A stretch of DNA of 64,000 bases from an uncultured Gammaproteobacteria bacterium (GCA_964196225.1 CAXMSP010000016.1:15036-79035); one strand, 5' to 3'; numbered from the stretch's first letter, positions 14,999 to 32,040 are shown. The notes: generated by a model from the letters alone, not told the origin. Numbers and translations are program-made.

Positions 14999-16606
14999 TT
15001 GATCTGGGTCGTCGATGAACCCCGGTTAAGGCTTGCGCTGTCGTTCATATTGTATGGCCTATTCCTGCTCTGGCAACCTCTCTGGAGCAAAGAGGCCAAA
15101 ATCGACAAGCGGCCAGTGGCATTCATCGCCGTTTTTTTCATCGCTATCACATTTTACTTTCCTAAAGAATCACTGGTTTTCTTTGGTTTGATCCTGTCAG
15201 GCCTGATCGGCAGTCGATTGCTCGGCCAGAGTTCGTTCCGTTCCTTCGACCTGTTGGCGCTACTAATCATCATCCTGGAAATGGTGGTCGGGCTGGTACC
15301 GGATACTTTCAGGCAAATAGAGCTACCGGCGTTATTCAGCGAATACATGCAGACCATCATCCTGGTCCCAGTACTGCTGTTTTTCTTTGCCCCTAATCCC
15401 GATGAGCGAAAACAGCAGCGCAGCCAGGTCGACCTGATGCATGGATTGCTTGCGGCAACGCTGATCTTCATCGTGCTGCTCGGTGGTATCGTTATCAACC
15501 TGCTATACGGGGTCGACTATATCGACGGGTTACTGTTAACCGTATTCATCGTCTCGACACTGACGATCGGCATAAGCTGGTTCTGGAACCCGGGCGTGGG
15601 TTACTCCGGCATCGGCGTACTATGGAATCGGTACGCGATGACGATAGGTGGACCCTTCGAGACCTGGATCAATACGCTGACTACGTTAATCGAGGAACCC
15701 TACCTCAGTCCGGCAGAATATCTTGAAGCCGCCTGCGAACACCTGGTCGAGAATGACTGGCTAAACGGGATTGAATGGAATTTTAAAAATCAGAAAATCC
15801 AGGCCGGTGATATGGCCGGCACCCGCCTGAAACATCAACTGGCTGACGACTTGACCGTGGTGTTGTATTTCAAATCAAACCCGGGGACGGCGCTGGAGCA
15901 ACACACGATATTATTGATTCGCATGGCCTACCAGTTTTATCTGGCCAAGCTCAACCAGGAAAAAATGCGCGCGCAGGAGCATTTCGCGACGATCCATCAC
16001 ACCGGCGCCAGGCTGACGCATGATATGAAAAATATTCTGCAGTCGATCAAGGCTTCGCTCAGCATTCTGGGCAGGGATAGTGACACCACGGAATCGGAAC
16101 AGCTATTACAGGCTAATTTAAACCAAATCGGAACTCGTCTCGAAAGCACGCTGCATAAACTCAAGGCACCGGCGCTTAATACCAAGATTGTCCTGGTGGA
16201 TTGCAAAAACTGGATCGAGCGTATCAGCAAGCAATACCGTTCGAACAAGCAGCTGCAATTCCATAGCGACATCGAGAACAATGTTAGTCTACCGATTGAT
16301 TTATTCGACAGCGTCATCGAAAACCTGCTCAACAATGCAATGAAGAAACCATCGGCGAGTCAAATCGATGTGCGTCTGATGAGCAGTGAAAATATTGTCG
16401 TACTCTCGGTGTGTGACAATGGCGACGCGATCGAGGCAGAGATCGAGGAACACCTGTTTACGCAACCGATTTCCTCCGGCAGCGGCATGGGCATCGGGCT
16501 TTACCAGTCAGCGATTATGGCACTTGCCTTTAACTACGAACTCGAGCTGAGCCAGAATGAACGCGGCCGGGTCTGCTTTAATTTATACCAGCACCTGGCG
16601 GACTAA
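14999..16606 (+). CDS. Polytopic sensor histidine kinase (PrsK-like H-box)
   Basis: The N-terminal half of about 200 aa has at least 6 TM segments. It has the H-box GARLTHDMKNILQSIK and a HATPase domain (ENLLNNAMKK, DNGDAI, GMGIGLYQS). The TTG start is uncertain. The gene is convergent with the filament cluster. Confidence 0.8.
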   Translation: MIWVVDEPRLRLALSFILYGLFLLWQPLWSKEAKIDKRPVAFIAVFFIAITFYFPKESLVFFGLILSGLIGSRLLGQSSFRSFDLLALLIIILEMVVGLVPDTFRQIELPALFSEYMQTIILVPVLLFFFAPNPDERKQQRSQVDLMHGLLAATLIFIVLLGGIVINLLYGVDYIDGLLLTVFIVSTLTIGISWFWNPGVGYSGIGVLWNRYAMTIGGPFETWINTLTTLIEEPYLSPAEYLEAACEHLVENDWLNGIEWNFKNQKIQAGDMAGTRLKHQLADDLTVVLYFKSNPGTALEQHTILLIRMAYQFYLAKLNQEKMRAQEHFATIHHTGARLTHDMKNILQSIKASLSILGRDSDTTESEQLLQANLNQIGTRLESTLHKLKAPALNTKIVLVDCKNWIERISKQYRSNKQLQFHSDIENNVSLPIDLFDSVIENLLNNAMKKPSASQIDVRLMSSENIVVLSVCDNGDAIEAEIEEHLFTQPISSGSGMGIGLYQSAIMALAFNYELELSQNERGRVCFNLYQHLAD

Positions 16607-16719
16607 ATCGCCCGGCATCGTCAGGGAAAAATGGCATCCCAAAATACGCAATGCGTATATCCTGGATGCTAAAATGGGATATTTTTTTATGGGCCCGCTT
16701 TCACGGAAGAAAAATCCGG

Positions 16720-17586
16720 CTAAGGTAATTGCCCGGCATCGATCATTTTGGAAAAGAGTAAATTCGGTGACCCCCACTTGACGACATCGTCAAAATCATC
16801 GGCAAACCCGGTAGTTCTGCGCACAAAAGTGGTTTCTCCCCCCGCTACATCTTTAAGCAAGTATTGGTTAAGACTTGGCCCAAGACCCATGGCCAGGGTT
16901 GCATCATTCGTCAGATTAGCACCAATATTTTCAAGCTCGTCCCCGGCCGCTGCGCCGTCGTTCCAGTTCTTGCCCTGGGATAGCAGCACAAAAGGCGCGC
17001 CTCCATAAACCACGGGTGGACCAACATTATAGGTACCAAAGACCTCTACCGCACCCGTGCACTGGTTATTCGTGGAGGTCCCATTGTCGTCGCAGATCAA
17101 GTAAATCCCATCGAGGTCGGTATAACCATCCGTATTCGAATCTACCAGGCCAACGGCGCGCATTTCTCCGTTATTGACGAAGTCTGATCCGCCAGCGCCA
17201 TTAAAGTCATTATCGGTAACATAGTACCGGTAAGGATTACCCCAGGGGTCCAGCATTAGCGAATCAGCATTGAGTCGGCCGGTCAGGCCGAGTGTATTCG
17301 CCGGCACGAAGCCACCGAAATTGTTGCAATCAGCCCCGCCACCACCATCTTCAGCCCCGGCTGTATTGGGGATTGCAGGACAGGGCAGGCGACCGTTTAC
17401 CTGTGCAAACCCAACAATGGCCCCTATTATCTGGTCCATCTCCTGTTCGACCGCACGATATTTTTTCAGCTCCTGTTGTTTCGGGAACAACGCCACGGTA
17501 TACCCCAGTAAAACAGAAACTATCAGCAGTGCAATTGCGATTTCAACGAGGGTAAAGCCTGATTCGGATGGTGTCATTGTGCGCAT
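16720..17586 (-). CDS. GspG-family pseudopilin with enlarged globular domain
   Basis: MRTMTPSESG/FTLVEIAIALLIVSVLLG is a class III signal. LDPWGNPYRYYV matches the GspG DPWGNPY motif. It also has FVLLSQGKNWNDG and a Ca-loop-like DSNTDGYTDLDG. At 288 aa it is about twice the normal GspG length. Confidence 0.7.
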   Translation of the reverse strand: MRTMTPSESGFTLVEIAIALLIVSVLLGYTVALFPKQQELKKYRAVEQEMDQIIGAIVGFAQVNGRLPCPAIPNTAGAEDGGGGADCNNFGGFVPANTLGLTGRLNADSLMLDPWGNPYRYYVTDNDFNGAGGSDFVNNGEMRAVGLVDSNTDGYTDLDGIYLICDDNGTSTNNQCTGAVEVFGTYNVGPPVVYGGAPFVLLSQGKNWNDGAAAGDELENIGANLTNDATLAMGLGPSLNQYLLKDVAGGETTFVRRTTGFADDFDDVVKWGSPNLLFSKMIDAGQLP

Positions 17587-30642: not shown

Positions 30643-30645
30643 GAT

Positions 30646-32040
30646 CTATTCCTTGACCTCTAGCCGGTCCATGCGGCCATACAAAGTAGTACGATTGATG
30701 CCAAGCATTTCAGCTACCTTGCTGACATTGCCATCGTGCTCACGCATCGCCAGATCGATAACTTCTTTTTCGACTGCCTTAAGCAATTGATCAAGCTGAA
30801 AATCGCTATCATGCAATGCATTATGCAGCCAGTCTTCGCTGTTTGACGCGCCGTTGTGTCGCTGTAGCCCTGACATTTCCCTTTTCAGCACCTCAGGTTT
30901 TATTGTCTGTCCCGGATACTTCGCTGAAAGTCTGATTATTATATTACGTAATTCTCGCACATTTCCCGGAAAAGTATAATCATTCCAAAGCTTTAGTGCA
31001 TCCTCATCAAGCTGGAAAGCTGCGACTCCATCCGCGACCTGCTGCATGAAATAAAACAGTAAATCATCCTTGTCACCATTGCGTTCCTTGAGCGAGGGCA
31101 CGCGCAAGGTCAAAACGCTGAGACGATGGTATAAATCTTCCCGGAACTGGTTGGTTTTTATGGCTTCAAATATATCCTTGTTGGTTGCAGCGAGAACCCG
31201 CGCCGAAGAGTGGCGTGGCTGGGTCTCACCAAGGCGGTAGTACTCACCATTTTCGAGCACGCGCAACAGCTTAGCCTGCAAGTCCAGGGGCAGGTCGGCC
31301 ACTTCATCAAGCAATAAAGTCCCCGAGCCGGCTTCTTCGAAAAATCCGTTCCTGGTGTCCGTGGCACCGGTAAAAGCGCCCTTGACGTGCCCGAACAATT
31401 GCGACTCGAGCAACTCGCCGTTGAAAGCGGCGCAGTTCAAGGTCATGAAGGGTTCCTGTTTACGCGAACTGCAGCGATGCAGATTACGCGCGGCGACTTC
31501 CTTGCCGCTGCCTGATTCGCCTTCGATCAATACCGGGTAGGGCGAATCAGCTAACTGGCGTATCTGCATGCGCAACAGTTCGCTTTCTTCGCTGGAGCCG
31601 ACGATGCCTTCAATGTCATCGTGTCCCACGTCAGCGCCGCCGCCGGCAATTATCTGTCGTTTCAGACGTACCTTTATTTCAGCGATATCGCAGGGCTTGG
31701 AGATGAAATCGACAGCCCCGTCTTCCTTGGCCTGGAACAGGTGCTTCTTGTTATCCTGACCGGACAAAACCAGGATGCGGGTCGAGGGATGCATCTGGGA
31801 TATCTTTCGAATCACCGCGAGCCCTTCGTCGGGACGATGCGTATTGGGAGGCAGCCCCAGGTCGACCAATGCCAGTGCCGGAGAATCCGACATATCACTC
31901 ATTAACTTGAAGCTGGAAGCCCGATCCGAAGCGCGTTCTATCTCGTATTCTTCACTGAGCACATACTCGAGACTGTCGGCGATAATTGCATCATCGTCGA
32001 CCAACAACAGTGTCGGTTTCTTTTCACTGTCCAGCGGCAT
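30646..32040 (-). CDS. Sigma54-dependent response regulator (REC, AAA+, Fis HTH)
   Basis: It has a REC domain (LLVDDD, ALVDLGLPP), Walker A GESGSGKE, the GAFTGA motif (KGAFTGATD) and a C-terminal HTH (NVSKVAEMLGINRTTLYGRM). There is a 3-nt gap to the ExeA-like gene. Confidence 0.92.
   Translation of the reverse strand: MPLDSEKKPTLLLVDDDAIIADSLEYVLSEEYEIERASDRASSFKLMSDMSDSPALALVDLGLPPNTHRPDEGLAVIRKISQMHPSTRILVLSGQDNKKHLFQAKEDGAVDFISKPCDIAEIKVRLKRQIIAGGGADVGHDDIEGIVGSSEESELLRMQIRQLADSPYPVLIEGESGSGKEVAARNLHRCSSRKQEPFMTLNCAAFNGELLESQLFGHVKGAFTGATDTRNGFFEEAGSGTLLLDEVADLPLDLQAKLLRVLENGEYYRLGETQPRHSSARVLAATNKDIFEAIKTNQFREDLYHRLSVLTLRVPSLKERNGDKDDLLFYFMQQVADGVAAFQLDEDALKLWNDYTFPGNVRELRNIIIRLSAKYPGQTIKPEVLKREMSGLQRHNGASNSEDWLHNALHDSDFQLDQLLKAVEKEVIDLAMREHDGNVSKVAEMLGINRTTLYGRMDRLEVKE

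Follow-up and report, generated by a model that had tools for sequence, protein, structure and literature searches.

The mannose-sensitive haemagglutinin (MSHA) pilus of Vibrio, Aeromonas and Shewanella is encoded by mshIJKLMNEGF and mshBACDOPQ, and all loci of its class (MSH) are single loci without a prepilin peptidase gene (PMC6668835). The type II secretion system (T2SS) of Aeromonas includes ExeA/ExeB (GspA/GspB), and type IVa pili (T4aP) provide the PilS/PilR paradigm, in which a kinase with six transmembrane (TM) segments and a sigma54 activator control the gene of the major pilin (PMC6058289). In Myxococcus, the ATP-binding cassette (ABC) genes pilGHI lie beside the pilin gene (PMC6060248). 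Only a few types of type IV filament machine have names, and another 884 systems have been left unassigned as “generic” (PMC6668835). Here, we analysed a stretch of 64,000 nucleotides from an uncultured Gammaproteobacteria bacterium (GCA_964196225.1, CAXMSP010000016.1:15036-79035), hereafter the window, in which a module of 16 genes at 11654-32040 encodes a type IV filament machine with its own sigma54 regulator and kinase. We think it reasonably probable that this machine is a surface pilus gated by cyclic di-GMP (c-di-GMP), of an unnamed and deeply diverged MSH-related subtype. A literature search found no description of such a system, whose proteins carry the annotation “hypothetical”.

The initial annotation, made from the sequence alone, had proposed a non-canonical machine of undescribed subtype with built-in sigma54 and kinase control, formed by eleven minus-strand genes and a convergent kinase gene. 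This proposal held, with profile and structure searches leaving four proteins without a family, and all 12 open reading frames (ORFs) were located at their coordinates. However, the unit does not end at 14999, as had been thought, but continues down to 11654: past the kinase gene, the module adds an ABC-2 permease, a bitopic protein, a pilin that had been called an orphan and an ABC ATPase. The genes, together with the promoter and the terminator of this pilin gene, are the following (lengths in amino acids, aa):

30646..32040, minus strand: sigma54-dependent response regulator, 464 aa, heading the long operon; Response_reg, Sigma54_activat, AAA_lid_14 and HTH_8 domains, GAFTGA motif.
28798..30642, minus strand: bitopic AAA+ protein, 614 aa; MshM-type AAA domain (AAA_22), TM segment 278-296, acidic repeat linker, C-terminal SPOR-like domain.
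27210..28772, minus strand: lipoprotein secretin, about 520 aa from M48; Pfam Secretin, lipobox LSAC.
25095..27200, minus strand: bitopic acidic tetratricopeptide repeat (TPR) protein, 701 aa, in the MshN/ExeB position; TPR families at residues 515-680, TM segment 360-378.
23392..25098, minus strand: extension ATPase, 568 aa; T2SSE and an N-terminal c-di-GMP-binding MshEN domain.
22184..23389, minus strand: inner-membrane platform protein, 401 aa; two T2SSF domains.
20575..22140, minus strand: bitopic protein, 521 aa from M12 (532-aa ORF); PilM-fold model, one TM segment.
19982..20578, minus strand: bitopic protein, 198 aa, placed in the MshJ/PilO/GspM position by position and topology only; N-terminal TM segment 13-31.
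19525..19995, minus strand: exported protein, 156 aa, placed in the MshK/PilP position by position and motif layout only.
17594..19522, minus strand: pilin-like protein without Glu5 (G/YMLIM, the slash marking the cleavage site), 642 aa, proposed tip or priming subunit; N-terminal pilin helix, large beta-rich domain.
16720..17586, minus strand: prepilin, 288 aa, leader MRTMTPSESG/FTLVE; N_methyl.
14999..16606, plus strand: polytopic histidine kinase, 535 aa, H-box THDMKN; HisKA and HATPase_c, 5-6 TM segments, no periplasmic domain.
14130..14924, minus strand: 6-TM ABC-2-type permease-like protein, 264 aa; weak ABC2_membrane_3 match, syntenic in close and distant clades.
13392..14129, minus strand: bitopic helical protein, 245 aa; N-terminal TM segment, syntenic in close and distant clades.
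13328..13343, minus strand: sigma54-type -24/-12 promoter, TGGCAT-N5-ATGCA, about 40 nt upstream of the ATG of the 207-aa pilin.
12664..13287, minus strand: prepilin, 207 aa from M16 (222-aa ORF), leader MQLSKQRG/FTLVE; N_methyl.
12619..12644, minus strand: intrinsic terminator directly after the 207-aa pilin gene; 10-bp stem with 7 G-C pairs, T7 tail.
11654..12388, minus strand: ABC ATPase, 244 aa, DrrA/ABC-2 exporter type; ABC_tran, best NCBIfam match the drrA subfamily (132 bits), syntenic.

Domain searches bore out the earlier calls of a sigma54 response regulator, an ExeA-like AAA+ protein with a SPOR-like domain, a lipoprotein secretin, a bitopic acidic TPR protein, an ATPase and a platform protein, and hydropathy analysis gave the TM segments listed. 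The likely true starts are M12 for the 532-aa ORF, M48 for the secretin ORF and M16 for the 222-aa pilin ORF, and with M48 as the start of the secretin, its overlap with the AAA+ gene disappears. The higher AT content that had been ascribed to the block goes in the stated direction, but the difference is slight (50.6% GC in the module, 53.2% in the rest of the window).

We scanned for related loci with an alignment of eight sequences of the 532-aa family and a single peptide pattern, taking one genome per species, so that the taxonomic breadth obtained is a lower bound; 161 relatives were returned and 80 loci kept. In the loci annotated with the window proteins, the genes follow the order listed above, from regulator to ABC ATPase with the kinase on the opposite strand. 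Each of the 75 loci in which five or more module genes were present proved colinear, 11 loci cover the complete set of 16, and the order is kept even in a distant clade whose 532-aa homologue is only 27-32% identical. Moreover, in every one of the 29 loci reaching beyond the gene of the 288-aa pilin, both parts of the module stay adjacent, with order and orientation unchanged. Since the conserved order includes the “orphan” pilin, in the distant clade too, we regard this pilin as part of the module. The arrangement therefore recurs in other genomes and, as first noted, matches as a whole neither T2SS gspC-O, MSHA mshI-Q nor T4aP pilMNOPQ/pilBCD, although its 5' half is MSHA-like (M-L-N-E-G, compared with L-M-N-E-G in MSHA).

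All 16 ORFs are intact, as are the catalytic motifs by sequence reading, and the ratio of nonsynonymous to synonymous substitution rates (dN/dS) against three relatives was 0.03-0.45 for each module gene tested. These values point to purifying selection on every gene tested and show that the module is no relic. Homologues of the 532-aa protein numbered 419 in a word-indexed search and formed 1588 clusters at 50% identity in an exhaustive search of a representative library. They were unnamed throughout, and their named sources were all uncultured Gammaproteobacteria. The Olavius algarvensis Gamma3 endosymbiont is among the organisms whose loci carry the module, which is so far known from uncultured marine Gammaproteobacteria only. 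Among 72,556 plasmids, tblastn gave no match to the 521-aa protein, and the module ATPase was at most 40% identical to anything.

Within 16720-32040, the module is a mosaic of relatedness to two loci. Its 5' half is nearest to locus L013 (ATPase 98% and regulator 96% identical at the amino acid level), whereas its 3' half is nearest to L007 (532-aa protein 87%, 288-aa pilin 84%, compared with 74% and 46% in L013). This difference between the halves suggests recombination that swapped the pilin and alignment half. Separately, the spacer from the pilin terminator to the ABC ATPase gene carries an insert of about 220 bp, at 12400-12600 on the minus strand, that is not present in relatives (the spacer in L004 is 57 bp). 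The insert encodes a frameshifted remnant with a helix-turn-helix like that of DnaA domain IV (stitched peptide against 1j1v, E = 0.0014), and is probably a fragment of a mobile-element gene.

The core of the machine appears closest to the MSH class: its secretin passes the MshL model, its AAA+ protein matches MshM and its ATPase has an MshEN domain with the c-di-GMP motif. For the secretin, the pass is borderline (TIGR02519, 251.4 bits for a cutoff of 250.2; 269 for the true MshL of relatives). Other NCBIfam models scored lower (GspD 151, PilQ 110 with a cutoff of 284), and reference sequences ranked in the same way, with 168 and 115 bits for MshL and 52 for GspD. The lipobox was found in 38 of 45 orthologues, and no N0-N3 or Secretin_N domains were recognised with Pfam or NCBIfam. 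By sequence, then, we classify the secretin as MshL-type. The AAA+ protein is 42% identical over 264 aa to the MshM of relatives, and in phmmer comparisons it reached 204-219 bits with MshM references (Aeromonas MshM, 204) versus 2 bits with E. coli GspA. At its C-terminus, Pfam SPOR matches 9 of 11 orthologues, with a best E of 0.002 that is below the gathering score, and a profile of these C-termini matches the SPOR structure of DamX (2lfv, E = 4e-5); we hold the SPOR-like call with modest confidence. The predicted succession of an AAA domain, a TM segment and a peptidoglycan-binding domain resembles ExeA. In the distant clade (L070-L085), the AAA protein has no SPOR-like domain and ends in a conserved Cys-containing motif, CKLCSTIIYRPLKDD.

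In the case of the ATPase, the c-di-GMP motif NF053729 was found well above its cutoff (62 bits, cutoff 38), and the models for PilB (TIGR02538, 515 for a cutoff of 675) and GspE (TIGR02533, 501 for 630) stayed below theirs. Sequence comparisons with PilB/PilF from Geobacter and Thermus in the PDB (417-426 bits) and with reference MshE (382), GspE (333-360) and HofB (285) place it at about the same distance from PilB, MshE and GspE; its dN/dS is 0.03-0.05. Likewise, the platform protein has GspF as its best NCBIfam model (TIGR02120), at 293 bits for a cutoff of 424, and ties between MshG (175) and GspF (169) among the references, ahead of HofC (111). For the TPR protein, phmmer found no significant match to MshN among the references.

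Three further proteins would take the place of the alignment complex. The 532-aa family had no Pfam match in 44 diverse members and none in NCBIfam or among PDB sequences. However, an AlphaFold2 model of the 521-aa protein (predicted local distance difference test, pLDDT, 86.7) places an actin-like domain in the cytoplasm and an alpha/beta domain in the periplasm, with a long TM helix between them, and Foldseek returned PilM and PilM:PilN as top matches (5eox, 5eou, 2ych; E from 6e-9 to 1e-7, probability 1.0). No GspL structure is named among the 50 matches listed. The GspL/MshI-like character ascribed to this protein is thus upheld at the level of the fold, and the model makes it a predicted functional analogue of MshI, GspL or PilM-PilN. 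Neither the 198-aa nor the 156-aa protein matched a family in Pfam, NCBIfam or PDB sequences. The former, whose gene is conserved in all loci annotated, agrees in position and topology with the GspM/PilO-like assignment made earlier, but no sequence homology was detected; the latter begins with a signal-peptide-like stretch, contains a conserved LFTTxxER motif and ends in a beta region. With hhalign, the three families stayed below 5% probability against MshI, PilN-like, MshJ and MshK of the neighbouring operon described below (less than 1% for the 532-aa family against the MshI and PilN-like families, 4.7% for the 198-aa protein against MshJ and 0.9% for the 156-aa protein against MshK), and phmmer found nothing between them and Aeromonas MshI/J/K.

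Of the three pilin-like proteins, the 207-aa one is likely the major pilin, because it has its own sigma54 promoter and terminator, an invariant start and a hypervariable remainder. F1 and E5 are present in all 16 orthologues, and the mature sequence hardly varies over its first 60 or so residues but is hypervariable beyond them. The 288-aa protein also keeps F1 and E5 (21/21 orthologues), and its DPWG..Y motif is invariant; its gene has no sigma54 promoter. Its GspG-like nature, as first described, is weakly supported, with Pfam T2SSG matching 4 of 21 orthologues and TIGR01710 reaching just 22 bits at the N-terminus. We propose that it is a minor or priming pilin or, less probably, the major pseudopilin. 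The 642-aa protein had been called GspK/PilX-like, and this stands for its N-terminal pilin helix without Glu5 but the rest has no structural match. In its family, Gly occupies position -1 in 34 of 35 members, and only L, I, M or F, never Glu, stands at +5. It thus fits the apical PilK/GspK/CpaL-type subunits, of which the absence of Glu5 is a hallmark (PMC13533445). Its AlphaFold2 model (pLDDT 80.8, predicted template modelling score 0.78) consists of a pilin-type N-terminal helix of 55 residues and a beta-rich body, for which Foldseek found no match with E < 0.03 in PDB and BFVD; Pfam, NCBIfam and PDB sequences gave none either. Orthologues range from 489 to 1139 aa, the distant clade L070-L085 reaching 1118-1139 aa. 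No MshB/A/C/D/O/P/Q set was found in the module: matches to Msh pilins were limited to the N-terminal helix, and no MshQ-like protein was detected.

A sigma70-like promoter site (32098-32070) precedes the long operon, and its first gene encodes the regulator, which scored best with PrsR (338 bits, cutoff 503) and NtrC (334) in NCBIfam, both below cutoff (dN/dS 0.09). The kinase gene is convergent with this operon, and its position and strand are conserved (dN/dS 0.08-0.09). It is a polytopic HisKA kinase, as first noted, but its likeness to PrsK is weak, this best match scoring well below cutoff (61 bits, cutoff 300). As for the -24/-12 promoter, 16 of 22 loci, with the distant clade represented, have an element scoring at least 9/11 ahead of the orthologous pilin gene, and each of seven other module genes has one upstream in only 0-2 loci. 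Across the window, sigma54 motifs are not above chance (33 matches, 34.6 expected), so that it is conservation across loci, not the count, that makes this promoter convincing. The terminator behind the 207-aa pilin gene is the strongest terminator-like site in 11400-17800. The initial annotation was thus right about the promoter, but the pilin it serves is no orphan and probably the major pilin of the system. The locus contains the design elements of PilS/PilR, i.e. a six-TM kinase, a sigma54 activator and a sigma54 promoter at the likely major pilin gene, and by analogy the 207-aa pilin gene is likely under PilS/PilR-like control.

Two other candidates were rejected. A TGGCAT..CTGCT sequence near the kinase start lies inside the coding region in orthologues, and an XrtA/PEP-CTERM regulatory set is contradicted by scores below cutoff for all models (PrsK 61 of 300, PrsR 338 of 503, PrsT 43 of 312, pepcterm_ATPase 228 of 324). 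The pepcterm_ATPase match of the module AAA+ protein is generic, since the true MshM of relatives gives practically the same score (233). Beside the module, at 9716-11436 on the plus strand after glnA, lie genes for an NtrB-like PAS kinase and then a 214-aa response regulator with a receiver and HTH_8 and without a sigma54-interaction domain; the pair is kept beside the module in relatives (L004).

Taken together, a working model for a c-di-GMP-gated pilus would be as follows. The long sigma70-type operon would produce the machine. The MshM-type AAA+ protein, anchored to peptidoglycan through its SPOR-like domain, and the bitopic TPR protein would aid outer-membrane assembly of a self-lipidated secretin in the manner of ExeA/ExeB. 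Binding of c-di-GMP to the MshEN domain would lead the ATPase and the platform protein to polymerise pilins, while the PilM-fold 521-aa protein and the 198- and 156-aa proteins would connect the inner-membrane motor and the secretin. The Glu5-less 642-aa protein and the 288-aa pilin would prime the fibre and occupy its tip. The 207-aa pilin would be the bulk subunit. The regulator would switch the gene of this pilin on through the sigma54 promoter and would itself be controlled by the six-TM kinase; like PilS, this kinase may monitor how much pilin the membrane contains. Prepilins would be cut by a peptidase encoded elsewhere, and the ABC-2 transporter whose genes are interleaved with the pilin gene would have an accessory role, for which Myxococcus PilGHI offers a possible parallel.

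Several observations weigh against this model. The carriers are all uncultured metagenome-assembled genomes (MAGs), and the system is known from its genes alone. The ATPase is no nearer to MshE than to PilB of Geobacter and Thermus, the 198- and 156-aa proteins are assigned by position and topology alone, and synteny alone ties the ABC genes to the machine; the 245-aa protein encoded among them has no family match in Pfam or NCBIfam. No retraction ATPase is encoded in the module. In addition, the module has just three pilin-like proteins, and known T4aP, MSH and T2SS filaments employ at least four minor pilins. Finally, the 288-aa pilin has the GspG-like DPWG..Y motif and GspG is the best reference match of the 207-aa pilin, although both GspG-like matches are weak and confined to the N-terminal helix; given these features, the product could be a short pseudopilus.

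A bolder interpretation is that the module stands for an ancient class of its own among type IV filament machines, sister to MSH, T2SS and T4aP, with its own alignment complex of three families that lack sequence relatives in known systems, a two-protein priming complex with a new tip fold of some 640 aa, an obligatory ABC-2 partner and a wide distribution in marine sediment and symbiotic Gammaproteobacteria. We put this forward as a tentative possibility.

We consider it unlikely that the module is a T2SS-like secretion machine, in which the 288-aa protein would form a short pseudopilus in the periplasm, capped by the GspK-like 642-aa protein, the 521- and 198-aa proteins would act as GspL and GspM, an ExeA/ExeB-like pair would assemble the secretin, and substrates would be pushed out of the cell. 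The invariant DPWG..Y motif and the weak T2SSG matches, GspF as best model of the platform protein, the GspL-like architecture of a fused bitopic PilM-fold protein, an AAA+ protein with an ExeA-like peptidoglycan-binding domain, a GspK-like subunit without Glu5 and the lack of a retraction ATPase would all suit such a machine. However, the secretin is an MshL-type lipoprotein without recognised N0-N3 or Secretin_N domains, the GspE and GspF models stay below their cutoffs, Foldseek puts PilM first with no GspL among the 50 matches listed, and the globular part of the 642-aa protein has no GspK-like match. No GspC (with its HR and PDZ domains) or GspH/I/J was found: phmmer gave nothing significant between E. 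coli GspC, H, I or J and the module proteins, and Pfam and NCBIfam detected no such domains. The reported lack of GspH/I/J-type pseudopilins in the module and of a prepilin peptidase is in line with this, no Peptidase_A24-type gene having been found among the scanned ORFs of the window. Moreover, a separately transcribed, sigma54-driven, hypervariable pilin is typical of exposed pili, not of pseudopili, and the module conserves no gene for a candidate substrate.

It is improbable that we are dealing with two independent neighbours, namely the 11-gene machine and a pilin, ABC-2 and kinase unit serving, for example, T4aP or the export of polysaccharide or lipoprotein. The kinase, permease, 245-aa protein, pilin and ABC ATPase genes would indeed be transcribed apart from the long operon, T4aP minor-pilin genes are present in the window, and ABC-2 exporters are generic. 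Against this, both parts stay adjacent in 29 of 29 loci, including the clade of about 28% identity, the machine operon begins with the one sigma54 activator gene in the vicinity while the only conserved sigma54 promoter is that of the 207-aa pilin, and without this pilin the 288-aa protein would be the sole plausible bulk subunit.

Very little speaks for an ordinary MSHA operon with shuffled genes beyond the pass with the MshL model, the MshM/N/E/G-like genes in nearly MSHA order and the lack of a prepilin peptidase gene. This reading is contradicted by the presence of both systems on one contig in a relative, and in the window a decayed canonical MSHA operon, which the initial annotation had missed, lies directly upstream:

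32354..36010, minus strand: relic of a canonical MSHA operon, not part of the module; mshI, pilN-like gene, mshJ, mshK-mshL fusion, mshM, mshN stub.

By domain, the genes of this region are PilM-like, PilN-like and T2SSM-like, with one for a 202-aa “secretin” and another AAA_22 gene besides that of the module. Using proteins of relatives in tblastn, we found that the 202-aa ORF joins mshK codons 1-89 to mshL codons 450-567. No homologue spans the whole protein, whose N-terminal half is matched by 138-aa proteins and whose C-terminal half is matched by MshL secretins. Of mshN, a 32-codon stub retains residues 1-20, and tblastn onto the window revealed no canonical mshE, mshG, mshF or pilin gene. 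The relic mshI, pilN-like gene, mshJ and mshM are intact, with a dN/dS of about 0.1 against a relative. In relatives with the same secB-gpsA-spoU flank, intact mshI, pilN-like and mshJ-K-L-M-N-E-G-F genes are followed by pilin genes, and on one contig of 418 kb the canonical operon is directly followed by the module. The operon of these relatives is orthologous to the MSHA locus of Aeromonas caviae, and its proteins score about twice as high on Aeromonas MSHA as those of the module (MshE 666 vs 382, MshG 398 vs 175 and MshL 360 vs 115 bits). Since relatives carry both systems in tandem, and given these scores, sequence comparison indicates that the module is not the MSHA pilus. Identity between the co-resident systems is 36% for E, 22% for G, 26% for L and 42% for M, homology to MshI/J/K is undetectable and the MshB/A/C/D/O/P/Q set is absent.

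In a close relative (L086-L088, Logan ERR101741xx contigs, 4649-6345), the canonical mshL is split into 451 and 114 codons in 12 contigs, the split being due either to a frameshift that made it a pseudogene or to a sequencing artefact that recurs. This suggests that decay of MSHA in the lineage began before the large deletions. That the module itself is a decaying, non-functional remnant, as the adjacent MSHA operon clearly is in this lineage, can be given next to no credence, with 16 intact ORFs and catalytic motifs, dN/dS values of 0.03-0.45 and gene order kept in 75 loci.

Elsewhere in the window, a T4aP minor-pilin operon at 32-5592 on the plus strand encodes PilW (277 aa, truncated by the start of the window), PilX (180 aa), PilY1 (1148 aa, with a beta-propeller) and a ComP/PilE-like pilin (161 aa), and it follows that the genome has a third type IV filament system. 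A cyanophycin cluster at 51680-58358 on the minus strand comprises genes for a 934-aa cyanophycin synthetase, a 571-aa Mur-ligase-type paralogue, a cyanophycinase-like S51 peptidase and an amidohydrolase. At 46680-48766 on the plus strand, two ORFs of 466 and 223 aa without a Pfam match lie in the stretch of the window with the lowest GC content (about 46%), beside a copper/heavy-metal P-type ATPase gene.

As the module persists where the canonical MSHA is being lost, it probably supplies the main attachment or export function in these uncultured Gammaproteobacteria, which are sulfur-cycle and symbiotic organisms and count the Olavius Gamma3 symbiont among them. The module is a clean and strongly conserved example of the unassigned “generic” type IV filament systems, itself abundant in metagenomes, and one that keeps the motor and the secretin and swaps the alignment proteins and most pilins for unrecognisable families. 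With just three pilin-like proteins, it bears on the minimal priming complex of type IV filaments, and four to five uncharacterised protein families gain a testable context.

Compared with MSHA, the module is alike in its MshL-type lipoprotein secretin, MshM-type AAA+ protein, TPR protein in the MshN position, MshEN ATPase, platform protein and organisation as a single locus without a prepilin peptidase, and the order M-L-N-E-G is close to L-M-N-E-G. By the TXSScan/MacSyFinder definition of the MSH class (PMC6668835), it shows the secretin, the AAA+ protein and the single locus without prepilin peptidase, and it lacks the MshA and MshB/C/D/O/P/Q pilins and the MshI/J/K accessory proteins. Unlike MSHA, to whose co-resident copy it is 22-42% identical, it has proteins in the I/J/K positions that are unrelated in sequence and encoded after the platform gene, an AAA+ protein with a TM segment and a SPOR-like domain, and three pilin-like proteins, including the Glu5-less 642-aa one of unmatched fold, without MshQ. 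It also adds the sigma54 regulator, the six-TM kinase and the ABC-2 transporter.

The Aeromonas T2SS with ExeA/ExeB differs from the module in having GspC, GspH, GspI, GspJ and GspO, none of which the module has, and recognised N domains in the secretin. The putative peptidoglycan-binding domain of the module is SPOR-like, not PG_binding_1, its AAA protein scores 2 bits with E. coli GspA, and the GspE and GspF models remain below their cutoffs. The two are alike in the AAA+ protein with a peptidoglycan-binding domain and the bitopic partner that flank the secretin, a GspL-like fused bitopic protein, a Glu5-less subunit like GspK and the GspG-like DPWG..Y motif. An atypical T2SS of the Geobacter OxpG kind was also considered and dropped, all homologues being gammaproteobacterial MAGs.

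From T4aP, the module differs in having no pilMNOPQ operon, no pilT gene and an MshL-type secretin; the PilM fold is present but fused. With PilS-PilR-sigma54/pilA and the pilA-pilGHI region of Myxococcus, it shares a six-TM kinase that has no periplasmic sensor, together with a sigma54 activator and a monocistronic pilin gene with a sigma54 promoter. As in Myxococcus pilGHI, genes for an ABC ATPase and an ABC-2 permease adjoin the pilin gene, a likeness in layout.

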